A stretch of 64,000 bases of DNA. Origin: a virus. The DNA is taken from positions 1 to 64,000 of IMG/VR virus record IMGVR_UViG_3300037628_000218, one strand, 5' to 3'. A program made the translations under genes and the position numbers. The notes beneath the pieces are model-generated. The model did no database searches. It saw only the letters and a program-made list of their open reading frames with translations, and was not told the DNA's origin. Each line of letters starts with the position of its first letter. Position 1 is the stretch's first letter. Positions 141 to 44,895 of the stretch are shown piece by piece.

Positions 141-181
141 TTAAGTTGTACCCATTTTAACAGCCTTAAAACTACTGTCAA
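141..181 (-). promoter_or_regulatory. Early promoter cassette
   Basis: TTGACA-16 nt-TAAAAT followed by the leader motif ACAACTTAAAC. Confidence 0.85.
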
Positions 182-479
182 CACCTATTTCTAATACTCT
201 AAAGTTTAAAGATTGTTATAGTATTTATAACCCCCCACCTTGGGAGTTCCTACCAACCATTACTACATCAATCTAGGTAAACGCTCCCACACCTTCACAA
301 GCTCTAAAACCCTTCAACCCACCCTAGCCCTCCATTGATCCTCGGAGCTTCCTTGCAGCTTCTCATAAACTATTAAGACTCCCTATAAGCAGCCTGCTAG
401 GGATCTTGTAGGACGCTACAAGTAAGCTTAAAAGTGTAGTACTACATTAGTACTAGGTTAAGTTATATCTAGTTATTAG

Positions 480-959
480 CTAGGGTTGGTATGGGCAGCC
501 TCGGAACATGCACATAACCTCAGCATCCTCGTTTATGTTGCCAGTAAATTCTGTTAACGCACGACAACGCTCAAATATACAATTTCCATAAAGTAAGCTA
601 GGTAAGTCACTTGTAAACTTTGATAACTTCTGACAATTATAAAACATATCGTTAGCAATAACTACACTAGATAGGTCCTCGTCAAATTCTGTTATACCCT
701 CTATACCCATGTAACCCCAAAACATACAGCTAGTATTAACCACTTTACCTATGTCTATCGCACTAGAGAGTAGTAACTTGTTAACGTGGTGGGTACATGT
801 AGGGTGTTCAGCTTCTAGCCTGTCTATATTCTTTGTTGTATTCTCTACAAAAGTACACCCGTTACTAATATACTCTTTACCGTCTGACATGAGTATCAAA
901 AAAGACGGATTATTACGATAAGATTCTTCTACATACCCTACTAATCTAATAAATTTCAT
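480..959 (-). CDS. BspA/TpLRR-like leucine-rich repeat protein with shared N-terminal domain
   Basis: MF..C..L..F repeats (MFYNCQKLSKFTSDLPSL, IFERCRALTEF). Confidence 0.75.
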   Translation of the reverse strand: MKFIRLVGYVEESYRNNPSFLILMSDGKEYISNGCTFVENTTKNIDRLEAEHPTCTHHVNKLLLSSAIDIGKVVNTSCMFWGYMGIEGITEFDEDLSSVVIANDMFYNCQKLSKFTSDLPSLLYGNCIFERCRALTEFTGNINEDAEVMCMFRGCPYQP

Positions 960-1156
960 AATCTTAAACCTCGCTTATTAATATCTTGACACGCTATAAA
1001 ACCGCTATGCCATGCCTCACTAAGTGTCTTAGCCTTACACTCCCAAGCTATCCCATTCTTTAAACCGCTAGCAGTATAACCCCCTGATACTTTCTTGATT
1101 AACATAATTAAGCCCCTAATGTTATGGTTAGAACTGTTACTAAGATAGTACCCCAA
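956..1156 (-). CDS. Hypothetical early protein (true start probably MLIKK at ~1105)
   Basis: ORF downstream of a promoter cassette; stop overlaps the next start. Confidence 0.6.
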   Translation of the reverse strand: MGYYLSNSSNHNIRGLIMLIKKVSGGYTASGLKNGIAWECKAKTLSEAWHSGFIACQDINKRGLRL

Positions 1157-1197
1157 ATAGTGCCGTTAATTATGTTGTTAAAATCAATCATTGTACT

Positions 1198-1250
1198 TAC
1201 TCGCTTTGTTTAAGTTGTAGCTATCTTATCAGGTTGGTTAGTGGTGTCAA
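1198..1250 (-). promoter_or_regulatory. Early promoter cassette
   Basis: TTGACA..TAAGAT AGCTACAACTTAAACAAAGCGAGTA. Confidence 0.85.
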
Positions 1251-1267
1251 CACCTTATTTAGGGGTT

Positions 1268-2023
1268 TTACCTAAAACCGTTTAACTCACTGCTAAAACC
1301 CTTTAGTGAGGTGCAAGTGTTGAACATACCGAATTCCACTTTTAACATTGGTAACTTGCTGTTAAAGCTAGTTAACTTGAAACAACCGTTAAACATACAC
1401 CAGCCGTTAACTAACAGCGGTAACTTACTACTAAACTCAATTAATGCTGAACACTCGCTAAACATCCACATAGACGTTACTAGACTTGGTAACGCTATAC
1501 TAAACTCGGTTATTGCTGTACACTTATTAAACATAGTATCGGCATATTTTAAACTTGGCAACTCTATACTAAACTCGGTTAGCGAAGTGCAACCCTCAAA
1601 AGTAGACCTCGCCCATTTTAATCTTGGTAACTCACTGTTAAAACTAGTTAACTTAGAACAACCATTAAACATACCCTTAGCATCTAATAAACTGGGTAAC
1701 TCGCTATCAAACTTGGTTAGCGAAGTGCAACCCTCAAACATATAACCACCATCAACTAAACTCGGTAACTCGCTATTAAACTCGGTTAACTTAGAACAAC
1801 CATTAAACATACCATTAGCATTAACTAAACTAGCTAGCTCCACACTCTCAGAATTAAGTAGGGCAGGAAAATAACTGATTAGCGACCCTGTAACTTTGTT
1901 AGTGTACTCTACAAAAATATCCCCATGCGATATGTATTCTTTACCGTCTGACATTAGTATCAGATACAAGGGTAAACCCCCGTAAGATCTTTCCACGTAT
2001 TTTAGCAATTTAACAAATTTCAT
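1268..2023 (-). CDS. BspA/TpLRR-like protein with eight 23-aa repeats
   Basis: Eight copies of xLPxLxxxxxMFxxCxxLxxFxx after an N-terminus homologous to 480..959 (LILMSDGKEYIS). Confidence 0.85.
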   Translation of the reverse strand: MKFVKLLKYVERSYGGLPLYLILMSDGKEYISHGDIFVEYTNKVTGSLISYFPALLNSESVELASLVNANGMFNGCSKLTEFNSELPSLVDGGYMFEGCTSLTKFDSELPSLLDAKGMFNGCSKLTSFNSELPRLKWARSTFEGCTSLTEFSIELPSLKYADTMFNKCTAITEFSIALPSLVTSMWMFSECSALIEFSSKLPLLVNGWCMFNGCFKLTSFNSKLPMLKVEFGMFNTCTSLKGFSSELNGFR

Positions 2024-2083
2024 AATCTTGTACTCGCTTTGTTTAAGTTGTAGCTATTTTAACAGACTGATTAGAGCTGTCAA
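2024..2083 (-). promoter_or_regulatory. Early promoter and leader cassette
   Basis: TTGACA..TGTTAAAAT AGCTACAACTTAAACAAAGCGAGTACAAGATT-ATG. Confidence 0.85.
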
Positions 2084-2090
2084 CCACTTA

Positions 2091-2399
2091 TTAACTAAAT
2101 AACCTAATAAAGCCTATTACTACACATACGTATAAACCACCGCATAGAAACCAAAAAGGGCAGTACGGGGGTATTAGTGGGGTTTTTTCAGCCTCTTTGG
2201 TTCGCTCTTTGATCTGCTGAATTAGATTAAACCTCACAACTTGAGTTAGTGCGTCTAAAATATCGGCTAGAATGTCAAGTTTAACTATCCCACAGGATCT
2301 AAGGACTACCCCCTCCCGTATATCCTTTAAGAGCCTATCAAAACTATGTTGTACCCCTTCGAGTACCTTTCTATGAATGTCAAGAGTTGCATCATTCAT
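2091..2399 (-). CDS. Hypothetical protein with C-terminal hydrophobic segment
   Basis: ORF track; MNDATL start shared with 3786..3983. Confidence 0.6.
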   Translation of the reverse strand: MNDATLDIHRKVLEGVQHSFDRLLKDIREGVVLRSCGIVKLDILADILDALTQVVRFNLIQQIKERTKEAEKTPLIPPYCPFWFLCGGLYVCVVIGFIRLFS

Positions 2400-2703
2400 T
2401 AGTAGCCACCTCTAAAGCTTTCAGTGCTTTATTAGCTTTTCTTACATCAATGCAGACTATAGCCACCACAGCCCTGGGGTACTTCTTTTTGATATTAAGC
2501 AATGCTTGCTTTACAGTACCCTTAGCATACCATGACAAGTATTCGTCTATATAGCAGCACTCACAGAAAGGAGGTAAAACCTTAACCCGTAGATTCAAGC
2601 CTGCCCCTGTAGACCAGTGTCCAGCCATAACAGCACCCCCTGCTTTACCGTAAAACTTGCAGTTCATTACAGCCTCTAAACTTTTCAACTGTGTCTTACT
2701 CAT
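2392..2703 (-). CDS. Hypothetical early protein
   Basis: ATG directly follows the cassette leader. Confidence 0.7.
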   Translation of the reverse strand: MSKTQLKSLEAVMNCKFYGKAGGAVMAGHWSTGAGLNLRVKVLPPFCECCYIDEYLSWYAKGTVKQALLNIKKKYPRAVVAIVCIDVRKANKALKALEVATNE

Positions 2704-2763
2704 AATCTTGTACTCGCTTTGTTTAAGTTGTAGCTATCTTAACAGTCCTATATCTACTGTCAA
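2704..2763 (-). promoter_or_regulatory. Early promoter and leader cassette
   Basis: Same leader as 2024-2083. Confidence 0.85.
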
Positions 2764-2767
2764 CCTC

Positions 2768-3043
2768 TTATTTAGGAATAAACGCATATCGGTAATAATT
2801 ACCTTCAAACTTTAATATTCCTGAGCCAGTAGCCTGCCGCATCTCTATATAGTCCTGACTATAATTATAGGGTTCGTTGTTACACTCTAAACCCCCGTCA
2901 AAAATTATTATACCGCTTCCAACGTCTAATTTAGAGTTTGTAAAGAAAACCGTCCTACCTTTTAAGTTCATCTCTTTAATAACAGGAACCTTAAGAGGGT
3001 TAATATAAATAGATAGCTCTATAATAGCCTTGTTGTAATACAT
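2768..3043 (-). CDS. Hypothetical early protein
   Basis: ORF between two cassettes. Confidence 0.65.
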   Translation of the reverse strand: MYYNKAIIELSIYINPLKVPVIKEMNLKGRTVFFTNSKLDVGSGIIIFDGGLECNNEPYNYSQDYIEMRQATGSGILKFEGNYYRYAFIPK

Positions 3044-3063
3044 ATTTAGACCCTCTTAGAAAT

Positions 3064-3104
3064 TTAAGTTGCAACTTCTTTAACAGACTGATTAGAGCTG
3101 TCAA
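3064..3104 (-). promoter_or_regulatory. Early promoter cassette
   Basis: Spacer and -35 region identical to the copy at 2060-2090. Confidence 0.8.
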
Positions 3105-3114
3105 CCACTTATTA

Positions 3115-3750
3115 CTAATTAGTTAAGCCATCCTTAAAAATCTTTATAATTACACTATCTAGTATAATAGATTGGCCTGTAGTACAACGCCCCCAATATT
3201 CACCATCTAGCGTACACTCACCATATGCCTCTAATTTCGCTATTAGCCATCTATCACATGCCCACCATTCGTAAATTTCAGGGTAGGTCTCAAACTCCAT
3301 TGCTTCTAATTTATCGCAAATATCTAAAAATCGGTTTAGTGTCTTAGTCTCAAAGCTATCTAAACGTAACGCCAAAGCCACATGCTCCTTGGTATGGGGG
3401 TTTAGTCCATCATATGCAGCATCTCCTAGCGTGTATATCTTATGATATATAACGTTATAAACGTCCTGCGCCTTATCTCTCAAATACTCGTAGCGTTCTA
3501 GTTCAGAATCCCGTTCGCTTTCTGTTAGATTTTGATAATAAGTACCAATATCAATATGACCATAAGGAACATTATTGGTTATATCCTCATATTCCATAGG
3601 TGCGTCCTCACCTTCAAGGCTTTTTTGTATCACGTATTCAATCAGGGTAGTTTGACAGCATTGGACATAGCCACCAACAAACTTGGAAACTGCGTTCTGT
3701 TGTTCAGACGTTGGAGCTGCGTTATATTCTTCTAAAGTAGTTATAAGCAT
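3115..3750 (-). CDS. Hypothetical early protein (acidic, WGRCTTGQ motif)
   Basis: 211-aa ORF preceded by the ACAAAGCGAGTA leader. Confidence 0.75.
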   Translation of the reverse strand: MLITTLEEYNAAPTSEQQNAVSKFVGGYVQCCQTTLIEYVIQKSLEGEDAPMEYEDITNNVPYGHIDIGTYYQNLTESERDSELERYEYLRDKAQDVYNVIYHKIYTLGDAAYDGLNPHTKEHVALALRLDSFETKTLNRFLDICDKLEAMEFETYPEIYEWWACDRWLIAKLEAYGECTLDGEYWGRCTTGQSIILDSVIIKIFKDGLTN

Positions 3751-3785
3751 TTTGTTTACTCGCTTTGTTTAAAATGTTGTTTCGT

Positions 3786-3826
3786 TTAAGTTGTAGCCAT
3801 CTTAACAGTTCTGTATCTAGTGTCAA
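3786..3826 (-). promoter_or_regulatory. Early promoter cassette inside the 3' end of ORF 3786..3983
   Basis: TTGACA..TAAGAT GGCTACAACTTAA. Confidence 0.8.
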
Positions 3827-3983
3827 CTATTATTTCAGCACACGTAACCAAATATTGCAATTCCTCGAATAACTCAAGATAGACTATAGACTCTTTGGAA
3901 TACCATTTACTATTGTCGGCTACCCATCTAGCTTTCAACCTGTCTTTAATGTTTATATATACCTCAAGCGTTGCATCATTCAT
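3786..3983 (-). CDS. Hypothetical early protein
   Basis: ORF; last 14 codons read through the next promoter cassette. Confidence 0.6.
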   Translation of the reverse strand: MNDATLEVYINIKDRLKARWVADNSKWYSKESIVYLELFEELQYLVTCAEIIVDTRYRTVKMATT

Positions 3984-4003
3984 CTTAGTATTCCTAGTTT
4001 CGT

Positions 4004-4045
4004 TTAAGTTCTAGCTACCTTAACAAACCACTTTCAGCCTGTAAA
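4004..4045 (-). promoter_or_regulatory. Early promoter cassette (TTTACA variant)
   Basis: TTTACA-17-TAAGGT AGCTAGAACTTAA. Confidence 0.75.
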
Positions 4046-4053
4046 GGTTTATT

Positions 4054-4275
4054 TTAAAATAATTCTAATTGTAGGTGACTATCCCCAAGTATATAAAAAG
4101 CCTCGTCTAGTTCAAAAGCTTCTACCTGACAACAATCAGAAACCTCTATAAAATCATGGTGAGTGGAGGTAAACCCCCAGTATTCTGTAGTGCCGATGCC
4201 CTCGTCGATTACTATAATGCTGCAAGGTTTTTCACAGTGTCCACAAATCATTTCAGTATTGTGCATATTCGTCAA
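4054..4275 (-). CDS. Hypothetical Cys-rich protein
   Basis: CGHC and SDCC motifs. Confidence 0.55.
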   Translation of the reverse strand: MTNMHNTEMICGHCEKPCSIIVIDEGIGTTEYWGFTSTHHDFIEVSDCCQVEAFELDEAFYILGDSHLQLELF

Positions 4276-4281
4276 CCTTTA

Positions 4282-4620
4282 TTAGTCAAGATGCCCAGCG
4301 CACATTAAGGAATGGTGTACACTCTCCCCAAATATATGGCAAGCCTTTGTAGCGTCGTTTGTATCAATAACTTCTGCCCCATATACAATACGGTGGCTTT
4401 TACCCCGTTTTACCCAAATAACAGCACAATCCCCTTCATCAAAACTAGCTAGAAGATCAAACCCCCGCCCTGCTATATGATACCCTTCAATAGCTTGCGC
4501 TAGTATCAATGTTGGCGCAGCTCCTACAAAGTCACCACAGAATCTAACAACGTGTTGCGGAGTGCCTGAAATATGCCCTGTGTACTCCAAACCTATTGTA
4601 TAGCGTGCATCATCATTCAT
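4282..4620 (-). CDS. Hypothetical early protein
   Basis: ORF after a cassette. Confidence 0.7.
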   Translation of the reverse strand: MNDDARYTIGLEYTGHISGTPQHVVRFCGDFVGAAPTLILAQAIEGYHIAGRGFDLLASFDEGDCAVIWVKRGKSHRIVYGAEVIDTNDATKACHIFGESVHHSLMCAGHLD

Positions 4621-4627
4621 TATACTG

Positions 4628-4681
4628 TACTCGTTTTGTTTAAGTTGTAGCTATCTTACTAAAGGTGTTTCAGCCTGTAAA
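4628..4681 (-). promoter_or_regulatory. Early promoter cassette (TTTACA variant)
   Basis: TTTACA..TAAGAT AGCTACAACTTAA. Confidence 0.8.
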
Positions 4682-4705
4682 GCTTTATTTTAAAATACTC
4701 TGAAG

Positions 4706-5305
4706 TTATGCACTTACAGGAATCAAAACCCACCCCCCGAACTTACTAGAACCCTGTATACTTGCTAGACGCTCCCGCCTTGTTTGTACCGTTATTTTGG
4801 ATTGACCCATTACTGCCTGATTTAACTGTTGTGTGTCTAATACTATATCATCATTCAAGCGCGTCCTACTTAAAGAATTACCACGTTCATCCTGGGTACT
4901 AAAGGTTTCACATTTAGTTAAATCTACCTTCAACTCTAAAGGTCGCGTTTGGTCAATAATACGTTGTACTTGGGGGTAGTAACCAGACAGATCAACTAGG
5001 TTGCATGTTTTTGGACAATAGAACCCCTCTCCCAGCTCAGTGTTGCACCAGTGGATTCTTTGACCGTCTGAACCATACAAAACTGAACCGTCACTATGCA
5101 AGTAGTTTAAATACTCGCGCATATCCTTTTTACCTACCGCACTAGCTACCCACTGCCAAGCTGTTTTTGGTTTAGCTGGCAAGGAGGGCATAAAGTATTT
5201 GTAAAGTGCTTCTAGCTCACTGTTTGGGTTATCGTCAAGGCTCTTTGTTACATATTCAAAAGCTTGCTTGCGTGTCATTGCTTTAACATTACTATTAAGT
5301 TTCAT
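4706..5305 (-). CDS. Protein with a sliding-clamp (DnaN) domain-like segment
   Basis: KKDMREYLNYL..YGSDGQRI..GYYPQVQRII resembles DnaN DVRYYLNG / ATDGHRL / GRFPDYRRV. Confidence 0.55.
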   Translation of the reverse strand: MKLNSNVKAMTRKQAFEYVTKSLDDNPNSELEALYKYFMPSLPAKPKTAWQWVASAVGKKDMREYLNYLHSDGSVLYGSDGQRIHWCNTELGEGFYCPKTCNLVDLSGYYPQVQRIIDQTRPLELKVDLTKCETFSTQDERGNSLSRTRLNDDIVLDTQQLNQAVMGQSKITVQTRRERLASIQGSSKFGGWVLIPVSA

Positions 5306-5337
5306 TCTATATACACCTGTTTGCTTGCTTGTTTCGT

Positions 5338-5378
5338 TTAAGTTGCAACTACTTTAACAGCCTTGTAACCACTGTCAA
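5338..5378 (-). promoter_or_regulatory. Early promoter cassette
   Basis: TTGACA..TAAAGT AGTTGCAACTTAA; the -35 box supplies the upstream stop codon. Confidence 0.8.
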
Positions 5379-5731
5379 CACTTATTTTTAATATTCTCTA
5401 CACTATCACGCCACTTTCGTCCTGTCACTGTCAAATTATCGCTATGATACACGTTTCCAATCGTTAACCTAGCCACTAGCAACAACTGCCTTGCTATGCC
5501 CCTCCTACGCTTACCAGGCTGTGTATACACGCTTTTAATAGTCTTGTTAGCCTCTACTATTAAGCAGCTATCAAAAGGGGTGCTAGTGCCTCCCTGTGAG
5601 TTCCTATGACAAAACCTATAGCTGTTATTAGATGCTTTCAATATTACCACGTCTAAGCCAAATTTGTGAGGTGTTAAAGTTTCTAGCAGCTTGTAGCAGT
5701 TAAGCGGTTTTAAGGTGTTAATATCAAACAT
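5375..5731 (-). CDS. GNAT-like acetyltransferase
   Basis: IKSVYTQPGKRRRGIARQLL matches the acetyl-CoA-binding motif A (RxxGxA). Confidence 0.6.
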   Translation of the reverse strand: MFDINTLKPLNCYKLLETLTPHKFGLDVVILKASNNSYRFCHRNSQGGTSTPFDSCLIVEANKTIKSVYTQPGKRRRGIARQLLLVARLTIGNVYHSDNLTVTGRKWRDSVENIKNKC

Positions 5732-5740
5732 AGTAAACCC

Positions 5741-6031
5741 TTATATTAAACCATCTAAATTGCCACGTACAGCATAAACTAAACCCTTGCCAGCTATTCG
5801 GGTAATTTTATCCCTGCTAGCACTCCTAAAACCTTTATTGTCTTTGCTAGTGTTAGCTAGTGCTATTGTGAATAGATCACTGTACCCGTTGTGGCTACCA
5901 GGGCTTGCGACTAACTGCCCGTTTAATTTACGAGCTGAACCGTCTTTTTTAATGAAGTTAACAGTTACCACCTGCCCGTGTAAGTCTTCTAGTATGCTGT
6001 CAACCTCTTTTCTATTTAGAAAGTTAGTCAT
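5741..6031 (-). CDS. Small SH3/WYL-like beta-barrel protein
   Basis: VTVNFIKKDGSARKL motif. Confidence 0.5.
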   Translation of the reverse strand: MTNFLNRKEVDSILEDLHGQVVTVNFIKKDGSARKLNGQLVASPGSHNGYSDLFTIALANTSKDNKGFRSASRDKITRIAGKGLVYAVRGNLDGLI

Positions 6032-6032
6032 C

Positions 6033-6173
6033 TTATAATTCCTCCTTAATTATCCAGAGTTGGCGGCGGTTCTTCTTTAACCTGCGCATAGATACCTTGC
6101 GTTCACGAGCGGTTTGCCGTTCTGTTTTAGGTTGCTGGCGTTTGCGTAACTTTTGAGTTTGAATATTAAACAT
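6033..6173 (-). CDS. 46-aa Arg/Lys-rich peptide (not in the ORF track)
   Basis: Translated by hand: MFNIQTQKLRKRQQPKTERQTARERKVSMRRLKKNRRQLWIIKEEL; fills the gap between two genes. Confidence 0.7.
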   Translation of the reverse strand: MFNIQTQKLRKRQQPKTERQTARERKVSMRRLKKNRRQLWIIKEEL

Positions 6174-6177
6174 ACAA

Positions 6178-6492
6178 TTAACCCTTTTTGTGGTTGTTAG
6201 TAAATGCTATTTGATAGCCTATACGATTAATTAATAACTGTACTGTTGTTACAGCTAGTGTATTGTTAACCATTAATTTAGTTGCCATCGCCGCTATCAA
6301 AGGCTTGGCATTTTTGCCCTGGCAGTCGAGGATTTGAAAAGTCACGCACCCATTACAGATAAACTTTCTGACAGCTAAAAAGGCGTGTCCATTTCTATTA
6401 TGAACGTGAGCTATGCCGTTCTTTTGAGCTTCTCGCATAGCTTTAATAATGTTTTTCAGTACCGCTGTGCCGAATGATGTTTTAGTGATCAT
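6178..6492 (-). CDS. Hypothetical early protein
   Basis: First gene after the cassette at 6499-6551. Confidence 0.7.
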   Translation of the reverse strand: MITKTSFGTAVLKNIIKAMREAQKNGIAHVHNRNGHAFLAVRKFICNGCVTFQILDCQGKNAKPLIAAMATKLMVNNTLAVTTVQLLINRIGYQIAFTNNHKKG

Positions 6493-6498
6493 TTTGTT

Positions 6499-6551
6499 TA
6501 CTCGCTTTGTTTAAGTTGTAGCTACCTTAACAGCATTATTTCTACTGTCAA
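6499..6551 (-). promoter_or_regulatory. Early promoter and leader cassette
   Basis: TTGACA..TAAGGT AGCTACAACTTAAACAAAGCGAGTA. Confidence 0.85.
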
Positions 6552-6633
6552 CAAGTATCTACATTTTATTTTAGAGGCTTCTATATACTCTTTATATACA
6601 TATACCAACTTTAAACTATTTAAAAATAAAGGA

Positions 6634-6661
6634 TTGACAGCAACTTCTAGCATGTTAAGAT
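6634..6661 (+). promoter_or_regulatory. Divergent plus-strand sigma70 promoter
   Basis: TTGACA-16-(TGT)TAAGAT with an A-rich upstream element, followed by the leader-like ACAACT. Confidence 0.75.
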
Positions 6662-6664
6662 TCA

Positions 6665-6745
6665 ACAACTACTAACAAGAGGGCGACAACTTCGCCTTGT
6701 TGAAGGTAGTCGCACATGGAAAGTGCGACTTGTTGCCCTAAAGGG
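6665..6745 (+). ncRNA. Candidate structured small RNA (three-way junction)
   Basis: AGGGCGACA/TGTTGCCCT outer stem enclosing CTTC..GAAG and AGTCGCAC/GTGCGACT hairpins, just downstream of a promoter; no ORF. Confidence 0.55.
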
Positions 6746-6778
6746 AGGAGGTAAGTGTGGGCGGTGGTTTTGTAAGCA

Positions 6779-6836
6779 TGCAAATAGAATGCCAAGAACT
6801 TTTATTATTATAATTTAAGTTGGCATGATCTGTGCT
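6779..6836. promoter_or_regulatory. Two divergent sigma54-like -24/-12 boxes
   Basis: Minus TTGGCATTCTATTTGCA (6795-6779) and plus TTGGCATGATCTGTGCT (6820-6836), both GG-N10-GC. Confidence 0.55.
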
Positions 6837-6848
6837 TGTAATATTCTT

Positions 6849-6867
6849 AATGAGAATGATTCTTATT
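6849..6867. promoter_or_regulatory. Fur-box-like palindrome
   Basis: AATGAGAATGATTCTTATT versus consensus AATGAnAATnATTnTCATT. Confidence 0.6.
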
Positions 6868-6905
6868 TGCATTACTATGCGTGTGTGAAAGTGCGTTTAC
6901 GTGTT

Positions 6906-7004
6906 TGAAAATGTGCTACCTCAAATATGAAAAAGCTCGTAAGTCGTTTATGAAAAAGCTCGTGAGTCGTGAAAATGTGCTAACTCAAATATGAAAAAGC
7001 TCGT
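6906..7004. repeat. Iteron-like direct repeats
   Basis: 35-bp unit at 6906-6940 and 6970-7004 (1 mismatch); TATGAAAAAGCTCGT occurs three times. Confidence 0.9.
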
Positions 7005-7292
7005 GAGTTTTGCTCTACGCCTTGTTAGTGCAGCTCGTAACATGAGAAACGGGACATACGTTACAGGTATTGACACAATTAAAACTAGAGAGAATAATTG
7101 TTGAGCCAATACTTTCAGGTCAACAGAATCCAATATGGCGCGATTAAACTCACCCACTTGTATTCTAATTTCTGCTATAAAACTTCTGCTTACTGTAGCA
7201 AGAACACTGCTACCATTTTTATCAAACCGATCATTTTTACAAGCGCGCTCAAACTCTTTCTTTTTAAATTCTTCATATGTCATTTTATTCAT
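6948..7292 (-). CDS. Hypothetical membrane protein whose 3' end runs into the repeats
   Basis: AGGTG RBS and a hydrophobic segment. Confidence 0.55.
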   Translation of the reverse strand: MNKMTYEEFKKKEFERACKNDRFDKNGSSVLATVSRSFIAEIRIQVGEFNRAILDSVDLKVLAQQLFSLVLIVSIPVTYVPFLMLRAALTRRRAKLTSFFIFELAHFHDSRAFS

Positions 7293-7300
7293 GTAATCAC

Positions 7301-7468
7301 CTATTTAATTAAAGATATATCAGCCTTTCTGCTTAGCTTTTTATCTTGATACTTCCAGCCGCTTAACCACTGTGTGCGCTGTGGGCTTTCGTGCCAATAA
7401 CTGCAATTTTCAGAACTACAGTTATTGCTTCTAGCCTGCCTGCCTTCACTGAATATATTGTTTTTCAT
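7301..7468 (-). CDS. Ribosome modulation factor (Rmf/CrpP-fold)-like protein, 55 aa (not in the ORF track)
   Basis: FSEGRQARSNNCSSENCSYWHESPQRTQWLSGW aligns with RMF GYQAGIAGRSKEMCPYQ..QRSQWLGGW; GGGGAG RBS. Confidence 0.7.
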   Translation of the reverse strand: MKNNIFSEGRQARSNNCSSENCSYWHESPQRTQWLSGWKYQDKKLSRKADISLIK

Positions 7469-7573
7469 GCTAACTCCCCATTGATTTGTTAATGCTGCTA
7501 ATTGCCTGCTTCCTACGCTTGATAGTTAGCTGATCTCCAAGCTAGTTCGTTCAGAAGCAGGAGCTTAGTAACT

Positions 7574-8086
7574 CTAGTCTTCCAGTGTCCATTGTAAACC
7601 TTTCTGGACTATACCATGATCTCGTATAGAACGTAGGACTGCAAGAGCAATGCCAATATCGTTGCGACCTGATAAACGGGAAGTCTCAATATCGTGGACA
7701 ATCTTGAAAAACGCTTCTTGCTCAATAGTGATGCTAATATCCTCCCAACCAGTACCAGCACGTTTAAGGTAACCTTGGCCTCCATCTACGGAACATGCAC
7801 CACACTTACAGGTAACATAATCATGACGGTGAGCTGAGTAGATAGAGTCCCCGCAAGCCTTACATATGATCTGGTTAGATGCTATGTACATGTCTCGCTC
7901 TTGTTCTTTAATTCTCCAAAGCCCTTGTTTAACATTAAACAAAACTGACGAGAGGTTGTAGTCAATACTAGATTCCTCCCAGCTAACTAAGTATTCTTCT
8001 CTATCTTTATCTAGTACTGCTGTGTACACAGTAGGGTCTTCCCACTCTAAACTGTGCGTAAACTCGAACTTATCTGGTAACTTCAT
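7574..8086 (-). CDS. Hypothetical Zn-binding protein
   Basis: CKAC..SAHRHDYVTCKCG..VDGG motif. Confidence 0.7.
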   Translation of the reverse strand: MKLPDKFEFTHSLEWEDPTVYTAVLDKDREEYLVSWEESSIDYNLSSVLFNVKQGLWRIKEQERDMYIASNQIICKACGDSIYSAHRHDYVTCKCGACSVDGGQGYLKRAGTGWEDISITIEQEAFFKIVHDIETSRLSGRNDIGIALAVLRSIRDHGIVQKGLQWTLED

Positions 8087-8087
8087 A

Positions 8088-8333
8088 CTAATTCTCCTGT
8101 TTAGGTTGCTTTACCACATTCTTGCGGTAGAAAGTATCTTTGCCCCCGTTAGAGGCTGTACACTCAACTGTGAAGCCCAAGGGTGTCACTCTTATGATCT
8201 CACATTTAGCCAAACGGTGTGTACGAGGGAATATGCAAGCTACAGTATCTCCTACTTCTACAGGTGCTCCAAAAAAGTCTAACCCATGAGTTTGCATTGT
8301 GATACCTCCTTGCCCCATACTATTAACCCCCAA
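8088..8333 (-). CDS. Hypothetical protein
   Basis: ORF track. Confidence 0.55.
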   Translation of the reverse strand: MGVNSMGQGGITMQTHGLDFFGAPVEVGDTVACIFPRTHRLAKCEIIRVTPLGFTVECTASNGGKDTFYRKNVVKQPKQEN

Positions 8334-9058
8334 TTTCTAGTTAAAAGAAATCGAGCTTTGTCTTCTACTTCTTTAAATTTACCCAACTCGATAGCTTCTA
8401 CCTTACTTCTAACCGCACCAGCCCTAATAAAGTTTCTACGCTTAACAAAAGTACCTTCTTTAAAGAAACGTGGATACTCATTCCAGTTTATACCTTTTTC
8501 TAGGAGCATGTCAAGGCGGTCTGCTCTACCTTTACCTTGTAGCTCCTTGTGAGAGGAAACTGAGCTAGCTGCCATAGACACACTGTTCTTAGTAGCATCA
8601 TTAACTCTCCATAAAAAAGTGTTAGCCAGCTCTTCATCATTAGGGAGCTGGAAGACTCGACAATCAAAAGTTGGTAGTGCCTTAGTACATTTTTCAGGCC
8701 ATTCCTTTAGCGCGATTGCTACAAACTTAGCTGTTGCCATTGCTGCTAAAGTAGATACCATCTTTTGTATCTTACCTCCAAAGAAGATCTCAGATTTGTA
8801 ATCCTCTTGCTTCCAGCATAAACTAATTTCATCGCTTTGGCAGTAACCTGTAAGTGCTCCGCTATTCTCTACAAGATACTTGGTAACCTCAGTCATAGCA
8901 TCAGACATAGCAGCATCGTAAGGTCTCTCCATACCTTTTGTAAATCTGCTGAAACCTCTACCATCAAGACGAGCGTATACAGGTAAGTAAGGTAGAAACT
9001 TCCTACCCGTTTCCCGTTGTTCATAGCCCTTCATGCGATCTCCCATTTCATCTACCAT
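8279..9058 (-). CDS. thg1: Thg1-like (tRNA-His guanylyltransferase / 3'-5' polymerase) protein
   Basis: RLDGRGFSRFT, YCQSDEISL, FDCRVF and WR..DATKNS motifs. Confidence 0.92.
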   Translation of the reverse strand: MVDEMGDRMKGYEQRETGRKFLPYLPVYARLDGRGFSRFTKGMERPYDAAMSDAMTEVTKYLVENSGALTGYCQSDEISLCWKQEDYKSEIFFGGKIQKMVSTLAAMATAKFVAIALKEWPEKCTKALPTFDCRVFQLPNDEELANTFLWRVNDATKNSVSMAASSVSSHKELQGKGRADRLDMLLEKGINWNEYPRFFKEGTFVKRRNFIRAGAVRSKVEAIELGKFKEVEDKARFLLTRNWGLIVWGKEVSQCKLMG

Positions 9059-9248
9059 TCTCTCCTCCTCTCTTTTAGGACAATTTTATGCGCTTAACAC
9101 TACACAACTACCTTTTTGCTGAATATTGAATTTAAAACATGGCTAGATTCAGCTGCCAATTTTTCGTTTTCTATCAGCTCTAGCAGCACAGGGCGGTAAT
9201 GGTCTCCCTCTTTTCCCCTGGCAGCAACGCCAGCCCATGTACTCAGGG

Positions 9249-9479
9249 TTATGTGCCGTAAAATTCCTTTCTTGCGTTCTTTATCATGTCTACCTGTTCT
9301 TCTTCACCTGCGTTATCGAACAACACAAGAGTGTAATTCCATTCTGTTTTCTCTTGAGCCTCGTTAAACTTAGTATCAATACTTATCCTGGCTTCAAGCT
9401 CTAATATATATTTATCCTGTCTATCAACCTGAGCTTGCAGCTCTTGAATATGTTTCATTGCGTCCCCTCCTAATTGCAT
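9249..9479 (-). CDS. Hypothetical protein
   Basis: ORF; probable start at MKHIQ. Confidence 0.55.
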   Translation of the reverse strand: MQLGGDAMKHIQELQAQVDRQDKYILELEARISIDTKFNEAQEKTEWNYTLVLFDNAGEEEQVDMIKNARKEFYGT

Positions 9480-31959: not shown

Positions 31960-32037
31960 TGGCACCCTCTGCTGGACTCGAACCAGCGACAATTGTGTTA
32001 GAAGCACAAATTCTCTAAAAGACTGAGCTAAGAGGGT
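31960..32037 (-). tRNA. tRNA-Arg(UCU) with an atypical D arm
   Basis: ACCCTCT/AGAGGGT acceptor, TTGTG-CT TCT AA-CACAA, GCTGG TTCGAGT CCAGC, encoded CCA. Confidence 0.88.
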
Positions 32038-34208: not shown

Positions 34209-36746
34209 TTAGCTACAAGACTTCTGCCCTGTTTCTAAATCAACGTAGCAAGCTTTAGCTCCTTCGTCAGCTTCATCCTCTTCCTCCTCCTTCACTTCAT
34301 TAAGGATTCCGAACCTCTTACCACCACTATTAAATGTGGTTGCTCCTTTACAACCAAGCTTATAGGCATCAATATAGATACTTTTAAACTCCTCCCAAGG
34401 CATTTCTGGGGAGACATTGATAGTTTTAGAGACAGCAGAATCAACATAGCGGGTGGACAATGCTAGAACATCTAGGTGCTCCTTAGCAGTACACTCATTA
34501 GCAGTCTTACCCTTAACTCCCCAAGTCCCATAGGCGTAGTCAGTTACCCTCTCAACACGTTCTCCTTCATAGGTCTTGATAGTCCTATCATAGTAATGGC
34601 TGAACACTGGCTCAATACCACCACTGATATTATCAGCTGTGAGGCTAATAGTTCCTGTAGGGGCCATGCTAAGCAAGTGGCTATTACGTATTCCCTGTGT
34701 ACGTATCTTATCCTGCAACCACTGGGGGAGGGTTTTAATAAACTTACTCTCACAGTACTTGTCAACATCAAAAGCTGGGAAAGAACCCTTCTCAAGTGCT
34801 AAGTCGCAAGAGGCACTATAGGTCTCATTAGTATAAACCTGTAGGACTCCCTCATACCATTCAAGGAACTCAGGAGACCCGTAGGTGAACCCTAAAGCCT
34901 CCCCTGCATTAGCCACCCCTGTTAAGCCTAAACCCATTCTACGCTTTGTCCTACTCTCCTCTGCTTGGATCTCAAGGGGGAAGGTTGCAATATCATGAAT
35001 GTTATCCATAGCCCTCACAATGTGTGGGATGTCAGCCTTGAACTGCTCCATTCCGAAGAAGAAGTTTCCATCTAAGTCAGTAAAGATATACTTAACTAGG
35101 TTCCAGCTACCTAAGAGACAGGCACCTCCTGGGGGTAAAGGCATCTCCCCGCAGTTATGAACAACCATAGAGTCTGCTATGAAGTTATGAGTTCCCTCTA
35201 CAGTTAAATCATAAACATCGGTAACCTCCCCTTGCTCTATAGATACAATCTCATTTCCAGAGAGTGTCCCACCTGAAGCACTTGCTACTCTAATATTTTC
35301 CAGTTGGAGATCTCTACTACTCTCCGAAGTGAGGCTGTCAGGGTAAGCTAAACTACTACACAACTGCACCACCTTGTCACCTCCTACAAGATTCTTAGCC
35401 TCAACCCACCCTTTATCATGAACCATAACTTCATGGTTACCCGTTACACGGATAGTCTTACCATTTTGTGTAGTAACATTAATGGTTTGCGTGTCTTGCT
35501 TGCTAATCCATGAAGCAGTGGCGTTCCTTACTCCTAAAGACCCATCAGCTAACATAGTGTAAACTTGTGTTGGCTCTTTAATATCCTTGATTTTAACTCT
35601 TCCATTTATAGTTTCTATTAAGGAGTCAGGATGCAAGCATGGATTTGTCGCCCTGATCTCCTCACAGTAGTACAAGTTGTTTAACTCGTTTATACGATCA
35701 ATGAATAGAACTCCCATATATGTTAAAGTAAGTACGCTACTCCTTACCCCAGCTAACCTCGATCAAAGTTAACTGCTGCATGTCTCCATACAGATCAGAC
35801 TATATCAAGAACTCAAAGAGTTCCCACCTATTTCCACCCGCTTGGGTGTACTCCGTTGTCGGATAGTCGTTGCACGTTCAATTAAATACCTGTCGTATAG
35901 TGTACTTAATAGCTTCGCTCAGGATTGCCCTCACCCTAGATGTTAGGGGTTCCCCTGAATTAAAGTGGTTTCGACATAAGATCACTCTTATGAAGCCCAG
36001 TATTATTTAGGTTCTGCCCAATCCCACGTTGAGCGCATTATCTCTTCCCACAAGTTCTTAACGCTAACCTGCTTATACACTCTTCCTTGGAAAGTTAGAT
36101 TAAAAACCTCGTCAATACCTGAATCAGTAACACGAATAACCTTCTCCATGAACTCGTCAGTGATTGCTATGGAAAGGTTGAAAGCTTTCAAGTTGGTATC
36201 ATTTTGTTTAGCGTGAATAAACTCTTCAATATCTGGGTGGTCGATACGCAGTACTCCGATTTGCGCCCCTCGGCGATGCCCAGCACTAGCTATGGTATTA
36301 CAGATAGCATCAAAGATGTTCATAAAGCTAAGAGGCCCACTAGACTTGGAATCTAACGATACAATACGATCATCCCTTGGTCTAAGTGAAGAAAAATCAT
36401 ACCCTATTCCTCCTCCAACCCGCATAGTTTGTGCTGAGTCCTTCGCCCTGTCCATAATGGAATCCATCGAGTCTTCTATGTTTTTACTAACGAAGCAATT
36501 AAAAGGGGTTATCTGGCGTGGTGTTCCAATAGCCGCTTGAGTTCTTCCACCTCCCATAAACGCTTGGATTAGTAAAATGGCTCTAACCTTGTAGTAGTGT
36601 TCCTCGTTATCTTTTAATGCACTTGCGAACCTAGACACCCCCTCCTTGAAGGACTCCCCATTCATTCGGTATTTCATTGCATGTATTTCTTTACTAATGG
36701 CTAATTTTGGGCCATACTCTTCAATCTTATCAATCGTATCAGACAC
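34209..36746 (-). CDS. nrdJ: Class II (B12-dependent) ribonucleotide reductase; exon 1 36746-36009, exon 2 35714-34209; contains an intein
   Basis: FNCFV, GGGIG, RRGA, spliced WAEP/GVLFIDRIN, TNP-CGE, ACLLGS, RRMGLG, APTGTIS, C-terminal Cys pair. Confidence 0.93.
35154..35639 (-). mobile_element. 162-aa mini-intein in the NP|CGE active-site motif
   Basis: Begins CLHPDS; block B TGNHEV; block F/G VYDLTVEGTHNF..VVHN followed by Cys; no endonuclease domain. Confidence 0.95.
35715..36008 (-). mobile_element. 294-nt ORF-less group I (IA-type) intron
   Basis: Exon ends in U with P1 GAACCU/GGGCUUC; P3 CCAC/GUGG; P4 UUCAGG/CCUGAG; P7 GACUA/UAGUC; P7.1/P7.2; terminal G; removal restores AEPGVLF. Confidence 0.93.
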
Positions 36747-43934: not shown

Positions 43935-43973
43935 AGTTAAACCCCCTTAATAATCTTTAGAAGATTAAAACAC

Positions 43974-43998
43974 AAAAGGGCTGCCGAAGCAACCCCTT
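43974..43998 (-). terminator. Intrinsic terminator
   Basis: GGGTTGC-TTCG-GCAGCCC followed by TTTT. Confidence 0.8.
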
Positions 43999-44016
43999 GT
44001 TTGTACTACTTTGTGA

Positions 44017-44895
44017 TTACTTCAGAAACATGGAGGTATTCGTTCCAAGTACATGGGTAGGTAAGGCTCCGTTCCATGCCTTAGCTTTAATATAAGAGGT
44101 AAGCAGTGGTGTTACAGACTTAGCCAACTTACGGTTACCCTCTGCAAGTTGCTCCATATCATAAGCAATGGCTTCTGAGGCTAATGCAGCTGCCTTCTTG
44201 TTATTAACCGCAGCCTTATACCTAGATTCAGAGGTCTTAACAAGCTTTTGTGCATTGGTATCAGCAATCTGCAAGTCAGATTTTGCTTGATTTTCACCTT
44301 CCTGTCGCTTCTTGGTCTCAACCATAAAACCTCGGACTACAGGATCTAAACGAATATCAGAATACTGTACTGTCTTTATTTTATAACCACCACCAATACT
44401 AGCAATGTAATTGTTCACACAAGATAGGGTGAACTCTGCCATCTTAACCTGTGTAGCTTCATCGAAGAATGCTTGTGAGGTTTTTACAGTAAGACCTGCT
44501 TTGGTTTGACAGCTTAGCACCCGCTTACCTACGTGTGTGATTAAGAACTGCTCTGCTGTACCAGAAGACGCTCGGAGTTTATCGGCGTACCCTTTCTCAA
44601 AGTAGCCCGTAAAGGATACATCCATATTAGTTTTGAACTTATCCTGAGATGCAATTTGCAAATCTTCATAGTTCTCAGTTACGAACTGTTGGGAATACTC
44701 ATCAATGCCCCACCAAGGCAGCACTAAGTTGAACCCTTCCAGAACCTTACCTTGATGTACTTCACCAAACGACTCAACAGATGCCTGAGAGTTGGTTGTT
44801 ACAATCGTAAAGCTATTTAAGCTTGTAATAAGTAAGATAGTGATAAGTACACCACCACCGATTAGTTTAATTAGCTGGTTGTTACCTTTAGTCAT
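44017..44895 (-). CDS. SPFH/band-7 membrane protein
   Basis: N-terminal TM, coiled coil, AWNGALPT ending. Confidence 0.85.
   Translation of the reverse strand: MTKGNNQLIKLIGGGVLITILLITSLNSFTIVTTNSQASVESFGEVHQGKVLEGFNLVLPWWGIDEYSQQFVTENYEDLQIASQDKFKTNMDVSFTGYFEKGYADKLRASSGTAEQFLITHVGKRVLSCQTKAGLTVKTSQAFFDEATQVKMAEFTLSCVNNYIASIGGGYKIKTVQYSDIRLDPVVRGFMVETKKRQEGENQAKSDLQIADTNAQKLVKTSESRYKAAVNNKKAAALASEAIAYDMEQLAEGNRKLAKSVTPLLTSYIKAKAWNGALPTHVLGTNTSMFLK

Follow-up and report, generated by a model that had tools for sequence, protein, structure and literature searches.

An early plus-strand promoter with a folded leader RNA directed at iteron-like repeats in an uncultured phage: a possible transcription arm of a replication origin

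For most phages that have not been cultured, the replication origin has yet to be located. In the phage described here an early-type promoter on the plus strand is directed away from the early genes, towards AT-rich DNA and a set of direct repeats, and this raises the question of what such a promoter transcribes and what use the transcript has. The original prediction, made from the letters of the DNA, was that it drives an abundant structured non-coding RNA, acting either as a decoy or as a primer for the nearby repeats. The element is real, conserved between this phage and the sole relative found, and unclassified, and a link to replication is plausible. As the comparison is of two sequences only, the function of the element stays inferred.

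The phage, its relative and the early promoters

The window, meaning the whole 64,000-nt stretch of DNA that was analysed, comprises bases 1-64000 of the 93,797-bp IMG/VR record IMGVR_UViG_3300037628_000218 (G000; 41% G+C). Nearly all G000 genes are carried by the minus strand, with a plus-strand block at about 76-92 kb; GC skew, considered as an origin marker, follows this gene orientation and gave no origin signal. DNA similarity searches in near and distant modes against 50,697 phage records returned no match to G000, its polymerase shows only 36-40% identity to those of Aeromonas and Alteromonas phages and its tail protein is similar to one of Vibrio phages; it is therefore regarded as an uncultured phage, the host of which is probably an aquatic gammaproteobacterium. 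Among the G000 products are a primase-helicase of fused Toprim/DnaB type and a polymerase of family A, whose tblastn matches are annotated as DNA polymerase I; a 5'-3' exonuclease is represented by weaker, sub-cutoff Pfam matches only. On the basis of these three its replisome is called T7-like. The 109-bp 'direct terminal repeat' of the record was taken as uninformative about physical ends, the relative being joined elsewhere on the gene map. A group I intron (35776-36018, minus strand; 72.7 bits) and one tRNA gene (31963-32037, minus strand) reach their Rfam gathering scores within the window.

Among 5.8 billion proteins, the protein encoded on the left flank of the element (6178-6492) has one homologue, located on a 94,888-bp IMG/VR record (G001). 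This is the sole relative found, and all comparisons below are of two sequences. Genes to the left of the element are syntenic between the two phages, at 48-77% protein identity, with 54-77% for those that flank it, and the right-hand genes (6948-9400) are not common to them. One of the latter, a 55-aa ORF (7301-7468, minus strand) absent from G001, scores 27.8 bits with the Pfam family RMF (ribosome modulation factor), for which the cut-off is 27.9, and also matches PHROG 10492. A nucleotidyltransferase (phrog_388) of G001 is encoded in two ORFs, one N-terminal and one C-terminal (locus L016, 6561-8388, plus strand), which are separated by a GIY-YIG/NUMOD3 homing-endonuclease ORF. Exact and gapped patterns of the hairpins described below, searched in IMG/VR and JGI metagenomes, found only G001 and chance matches in GC-rich coding DNA, and a pattern of the early leader searched in IMG/VR found no match besides G001. 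Loci of distant relatives of the right-flank proteins (L002-L015) had neither the promoter family nor the motifs.

The promoter was placed in its family by scanning the whole 93.8-kb genome with an extended early motif. About 10 family promoters lie on the minus strand of G000, at 181-6551 and 92041-92305, and have in common A-rich upstream DNA, a TTGACA hexamer with G as the next base, a spacer of 16 nt that ends in TGT and a TAAGAT-like -10. All of these hallmarks are present in the plus-strand promoter (6634-6661), which has a -35 of TTGACA (6634-6639), a 16-nt spacer ending in TGT (extended -10) and a -10 of TAAGAT (6656-6661). An A-rich UP-like element precedes it (6618-6633), with the AATAA-type context of the minus-strand early promoters, and is kept in G001. 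Transcription is predicted to start near 6668, and the initial transcribed sequence resembles the leader of the family. With about 14 specified bases at fixed spacing, we estimate a chance expectation of ~2e-4 matches per window strand. The promoter stands back to back with the early promoter (6524-6551, minus strand) of the 104-aa gene at 6178-6492, a layout that is the same in G001, where the homologous promoter P2 (L016 9703-9676, minus strand) is preceded by a second family promoter, P1, in tandem and in the same orientation.

These features of the sequence confirm 6634-6661 as a genuine early sigma70 promoter, directed against the early genes. The consensus early-type promoter divergent from the early array, as originally proposed, was thus borne out by shared family traits and by a position kept in G001. 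That it was the only plus-strand promoter is true of the early family within the window and untrue of promoter-like sites generally. A generic sigma70-like site on the plus strand at 7070-7098 scores 11/12; it has no G001 counterpart and may be due to chance. Beyond the window G000 has further plus-strand promoters at 77177 and 92889.

The minus-strand family promoters are followed by a nearly invariant leader of ~25 nt, and these early mRNA leaders (154-6524, minus strand) are without a canonical Shine-Dalgarno sequence, unlike later G000 genes, which use AAGGAG-type ribosome sites. This difference suggests a special mode of translation initiation for early mRNAs.

A folded leader and a G-rich block

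From 6634-6661 a non-coding leader of ~100 nt is predicted to be transcribed. Read in the orientation of the window, G001 has a divergent early promoter, P1, P2, a 5' hairpin, 52 diverged nucleotides, a 10-nt G-rich block and its T-run, then Fur-box-like sites in an AT-rich array and finally 3-5 tandem 23-bp iterons.

The 5' hairpin (hairpin 1, 6677-6701, plus strand) has arms that are invariant in both phages and occurs once per genome. A G-U pair makes it stronger on the plus strand. The loop is of different sequence in the two phages, 5 nt here and, after one extra A-U pair, 5 nt in G001. Pair probabilities are 0.77-1.0 in both phages, and z values against shuffles are -3.9 and -4.15. Identical arms around a loop of differing sequence favour an RNA stem over a DNA operator of fixed spacing.

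Hairpin 2 (6708-6730, plus strand) is the perfect 8-bp hairpin that had been predicted, with a 7-nt loop containing ANGGA. Its counterpart in G001 occupies the same alignment columns and has 5 bp and a 6-nt ANGGAA-type loop. Of the five pairs that the two hairpins share, three differ at both bases and a fourth at one. When the diverged middle of the G001 sequence was shuffled, an equally good consensus fold was obtained in 1/1000 trials, and the pairing was lost once the partner columns were slid. The shuffle control of the covariation tool, which with two rows only is weak, reached the observed value in 35/500 shuffles. Pair probabilities for hairpin 2 are 0.58-1.0 here and about 0.4 in G001. 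A possible weak hairpin 3 (6736-6745, plus strand; 3 bp with one compensatory pair) appeared in the RNAalifold consensus. It was dropped together with the closing stem of that consensus, both having pair probabilities <0.1 (0.06-0.08 in both phages for hairpin 3).

Compared with shuffles the whole RNA gives z values of -2.6 to -3.2, and the consensus fold reaches -21.9 kcal/mol on the plus strand versus -12.2 on the minus strand. A three-way junction had been proposed for this RNA. Its outer long-range stem (6680-6688/6731-6739; 9 bp, one G-U pair) can indeed be formed, as can the local hairpin with its AACAA/TTGTT extension. The junction itself did not hold up: the long-range stem is in competition with hairpin 1, which the minimum free energy fold uses (-38.1 kcal/mol, against -25.4 for the junction fold), and this stem has no counterpart in G001. 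What the two sequences do conserve is hairpins 1 and 2, the latter through three compensatory pairs. The wider proposal of a structured, non-coding early RNA on the plus strand is supported by the promoter, the retention of two hairpins, the strand bias of the fold and the lack of a conserved ORF and of an Rfam match.

No known family explains the RNA, either in the window or in its G001 copy. None of the Rfam 15 covariance models matched the element at its gathering score; at E up to 10 there were three chance-level matches within or next to the region, all falling well short of gathering in bit score, and the G001 copy had no match at E up to 5. With no support from Rfam, readings as a tRNA-like RNA or a riboswitch were dropped. 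An antisense RNA directed at the ~10 early mRNA leaders was also considered and rejected, as duplex energies were unremarkable and unconserved: the segment 6689-6716 ranked at the 6th percentile of genome background against the leaders in G000 and at the 30th-57th in G001. The segment tested pairs best with the RNA's own 5' arm. The conserved single-stranded seed with conserved targets that marks a classical base-pairing small RNA was not found.

Further downstream a G-rich block and T-run (6757-6771, plus strand) may be a 3' end or an R-loop or pause element. The block is identical at 10/10 positions to that behind P2 of G001, and in both phages it lies 95-96 nt past the -10. The distance from hairpin 1 is 53 nt in the window and 52 nt in G001, even though the intervening sequence has diverged. 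Behind P1 of G001 there is a shortened version, ~32 nt downstream, in which a purine tract and, 5 nt further on, the initial 7 nt of the block lead into T-rich sequence and a box. A search for an Hfq-type terminator hairpin adjoining the U-run (6768-6771) found none in either phage.

The block is preceded by a purine-rich Shine-Dalgarno-like tract (6743-6752, plus strand) with AGGAGGT at 6746-6752; a similar tract is found 5 nt before the block behind P1, and a weaker one behind P2. By Shine-Dalgarno spacing ribosomes could load at the GTG at 6757, which starts a mini-ORF of 18 codons (6757-6813, plus strand). The equivalents in G001 have 5 codons (behind P2) and 4 codons (behind P1). As lengths of 18, 5 and 4 codons imply no conserved peptide and no real protein, the earlier description of AGGAGGT as having no real ORF behind it was correct.

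Boxes, iterons and a second origin-like region

Beyond the T-run a box region (6777-6870) holds two inverted copies of a ~14-nt motif (6777-6794 and 6859-6872), with an AT-only spacer at 6796-6819. Within 6780-6880 the most AT-rich 60-mer reaches 77% AT and ranks in the top 0.35% genome-wide. A Fur-box-like 19-mer occupies 6852-6870, and the place at 6846-6870 matches the Fur consensus at 13-14/19. In the homologous stretch of G001 there are at least 6 overlapping Fur-box-like sites at 13-15/19. Such 19-mers (13-15/19) form dense clusters at two G001 regulatory regions and occur as single copies at the matching G000 places; the positions are 6852-6870 (window), 91132-91156 and 92763-92781 in G000, and L016 9467-9560, 9737-9761 and 16883-17046 in G001. 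Their genome-wide count in G000 is not above that of shuffles. The predicted boxes could be host Fur sites or sites for a phage protein. Sigma54-type -24/-12 look-alikes at 6779-6794 (minus strand) and 6821-6836 (plus strand) were set aside as part of the inverted motif pair, with no G001 counterpart.

An iteron array follows (6906-7011, plus strand), consisting of three 23-bp units, two of which have a 19-nt companion element in front, and possibly a degenerate fourth copy at 7032-7049. The array thus fits the pattern typical of iteron origins, in which three or more direct repeats of about 17-23 bp stand in helical phase; at the corresponding position G001 carries 3-5 units of 23 bp in tandem. 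Iteron sequences of the window and of G001 differ from each other in a coordinated manner, as in cognate iterons.

The iteron unit recurs, ~80% identical, at 93252-93320 of G000, within a second origin-like region outside the window (92889-93320; L069 2390-2820). It lies downstream of the plus-strand sigma70 promoter at 92889, which has the upstream context of the early family. This promoter is followed by 13.6 tandem 11-bp units, every one of which contains a -35-like hexamer; the array could be bound by sigma70 region 4 or by a phage regulator. Beside the second iteron copy, upstream on the same strand, are four direct DnaA boxes (93119-93178); two of them are perfect, and the genome has no other perfect box. 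An outward promoter aimed at the iteron unit is therefore found twice in G000 and once, as two promoters, in G001. At 91031-91129 of G000 (L069 532-629), two perfect 40-bp tandem units with paired inverted TTGACA/TGTCA motifs adjoin another promoter region, and G001 has a similar motif cluster at 43950-44300.

DnaA boxes with at most one mismatch were not found at 6400-7400, nor was an initiator-type gene adjoining the iterons in the window or in G001. The iterons of the window have as their neighbour a 114-aa ORF that belongs to no family, and those of G001 a DFP-like protein. The C-terminal third of the 114-aa ORF (6948-7292, minus strand) crosses the iterons; it has no family match and no G001 homologue, and both its true end and its status as a gene are uncertain.

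What the transcript may do, and known systems

Tentatively, and with confidence a little short of even, we read the element as the transcription arm of a replication origin, making an activator or primer transcript. The whole of 6618-7011 would then be a replication-origin module, with the promoter as its transcription arm. Host RNA polymerase, recruited early, would open the AT-rich and iteron DNA; alternatively, a G-rich RNA-DNA hybrid would be left behind, and an RNA 3' end near 6768-6771 would prime the T7-like replisome. The folded 5' part might stabilise or shape the RNA, and proteins bound to the Fur-like boxes might set whether polymerase halts at the T-run or continues. Both phages share the order of promoter, AT-rich boxes and 23-bp direct repeats, the iteron unit recurs behind another plus-strand promoter beside DnaA boxes, and, as at T7-type origins, the promoters are directed into an AT-rich stretch. 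As the transcript is aimed at repeats resembling a replication origin, to fire or prime replication is its most likely role of those considered, although we would put this at somewhat under an even chance. Of the two functions originally suggested, that of a primer (or activator) for the repeats fits the context better, and a decoy was neither shown nor excluded.

Several points weigh against an origin. The right-hand genes are not shared between the phages, there is no adjacent initiator gene and the iterons at 6.9 kb have no good DnaA box; they could serve packaging, partition or regulation instead. An activating transcript alone would need neither a conserved fold nor a Shine-Dalgarno-plus-GTG arrangement, and folding each sequence singly gives pair probabilities close to zero for the closing stem and hairpin 3.

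It is unlikely that the RNA acts in trans. Made in bulk early from a very strong promoter, it would titrate CsrA, another RNA-binding protein or 30S through the ANGGA loop and GGA tracts, so freeing phage mRNAs with ribosome sites like CsrA sites. The loop motif of hairpin 2 is kept while its stem changes by compensatory substitutions, and a 6-nt ANGGAX loop directly on a stem is the high-affinity RsmE/CsrA consensus (PMC4005645). G001 has this exact hexaloop on its stem and the window a heptaloop with one extra base. Two more GGA motifs lie 12-30 nt downstream in each RNA, and the unpaired probability is at least 0.5 at 5 of the 6 GGA sites (0.39 at the hairpin-2 loop of G001). AAGGAG-type sites are found at typical phage gene starts, and a stable RNA would be compatible with the conserved fold and 5' hairpin. 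Nevertheless, three GGA in ~105 purine-rich nucleotides are what composition predicts (about 2.8 by our estimate), and genome-wide counts of ANGGA-loop hairpins are 12 versus 14-23 in shuffles for G000 and 22 versus 10-28 for G001. Known Csr/Rsm sponges have many more sites and a terminator hairpin, which is absent here, Csr/Rsm families in Rfam gave no match even at E = 10, and no phage-encoded CsrA sponge was among the results listed by a literature search. As the ANGGA motif was found after several other motif ideas, it lends the decoy low weight. Quite unlikely, in our estimate, is the specific form of an abundant early decoy in which the conserved ANGGA hairpin and GGA-rich tail would soak up host CsrA and the Fur-like boxes might set the 3' end by iron status.

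Two further explanations place the function in cis or dispense with a function of the RNA altogether. A structured leader, possibly together with CsrA, might govern ribosome loading at a minigene, the Shine-Dalgarno-like tract and the GTG at 6757 being the real start of a very short ORF whose act of translation matters (through Rho protection or coupling into the downstream DNA) rather than its peptide. We consider this rather improbable. It would account for the purine tract, 5 nt, GTG and same first codons seen in three copies (window, P1 and P2 of G001), for a GGAGG-to-start spacing of 5-8 nt that fits phage gene starts (mostly 7-9 nt) and for a P1 geometry like that of an ordinary early cassette, with a leader of ~25-30 nt to the start codon; ~9% of the long ORFs of the phage start with GTG. 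At 18, 5 and 4 codons, however, the peptide is unconserved, the plus strand downstream is without anything translatable and the 10 identical bases span synonymous positions, which argues for selection at the nucleotide level. Very improbable is the view that the RNA has no dedicated function, hairpin 1 terminating the minus-strand operon that comes from 9.5 kb and the opposing promoter insulating the next early cassette. In both phages the element occupies exactly the gap that separates two minus-strand transcription units, and a scan marked a minus-strand terminator-like site at 6696-6682. On the minus strand, though, G-U pairs become A-C mismatches and only 5 bp are left, the terminator tail in G001 has 3 U in 8, and the consensus fold is much better on the plus strand. 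Termination and insulation would also leave hairpin 2, the fixed distance of the G-rich block and the tandem promoters of G001 unexplained.

Should the origin reading be true, the combination of a host-type early promoter with a folded, G-rich RNA, with regulator boxes and with iterons would make a new wiring of transcript-driven initiation for a T7-like replisome, one that a host regulator might gate. An RNA acting in trans on a host RNA-binding protein would represent a new class of phage counter-regulation, and a CsrA decoy would mean that a lytic phage reprogrammes host post-transcriptional control by an RNA mimic. The element is a compact test object of ~400 bp, which can be synthesised and assayed without phage culture.

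Parts of the element resemble known systems. The bar minigenes of lambda are two-codon ORFs with a ribosome site. As there, an ORF of few codons comes after a strong ribosome-binding site in a non-coding region of a phage; the ORFs here have 4, 5 and 18 codons and a GTG start. With CsrB/RsmZ and CsrA-controlled leaders (PMC4005645) the RNA shares an ANGGA loop on a stem and further GGA motifs, 12-30 nt away, that overlap the Shine-Dalgarno-like tract. Unlike CsrB/RsmZ it has three GGA only (chance level), no terminator hairpin and no Rfam match, is phage-encoded and is driven by an early promoter.

The repeats recall iteron origins, such as lambda ori, P1 oriR, F oriS, pSC101 and RK2 oriV, in having 3-5 direct repeats of 23-bp period with adjoining AT-rich DNA and a sequence that co-varies between the phages; DnaA boxes adjoin the second copy at 93.1 kb. 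They differ from these origins in the absence of an adjacent Rep, O or initiator gene and of a good DnaA box at the 6.9-kb copy, and in the dedicated strong promoter and folded RNA pointed into them.

The primary origin of T7 consists of the tandem promoters phi1.1A and phi1.1B followed by an AT-rich stretch, and the transcript is the primer. Similarly, one promoter (window) or a tandem pair (G001) points into AT-rich DNA, the phage has a fused primase-helicase, a family A polymerase and a weak sub-cutoff match to a 5'-3' exonuclease, and no initiator gene adjoins. Unlike those of T7, the promoters are of host sigma70 rather than phage-polymerase type, a conserved folded 100-nt RNA comes before the AT-rich DNA, and iterons and Fur-like boxes come after it.

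Other analogues are ColE1 RNA II and the T4 origins ori(uvsY) and ori(34). In human mitochondria premature termination ~120 nt from the promoter LSP, at the G-rich block CSBII, makes the replication primer (PMC6317783, PMC3488243). That block is followed by T's, and the corresponding distance here, 95-105 nt, is close to the mitochondrial one. Neither sequence nor Rfam similarity links the element to ColE1 RNA II, the T4 origins or LSP-CSBII, its G tracts are short (2-3 G), and it has no conserved counterpart of the antisense promoter that makes RNA I in ColE1. In common with all of them it has a promoter at a fixed distance upstream of the putative start zone and a structured or G-rich RNA, which, by analogy, may stay hybridised as is thought for theirs.
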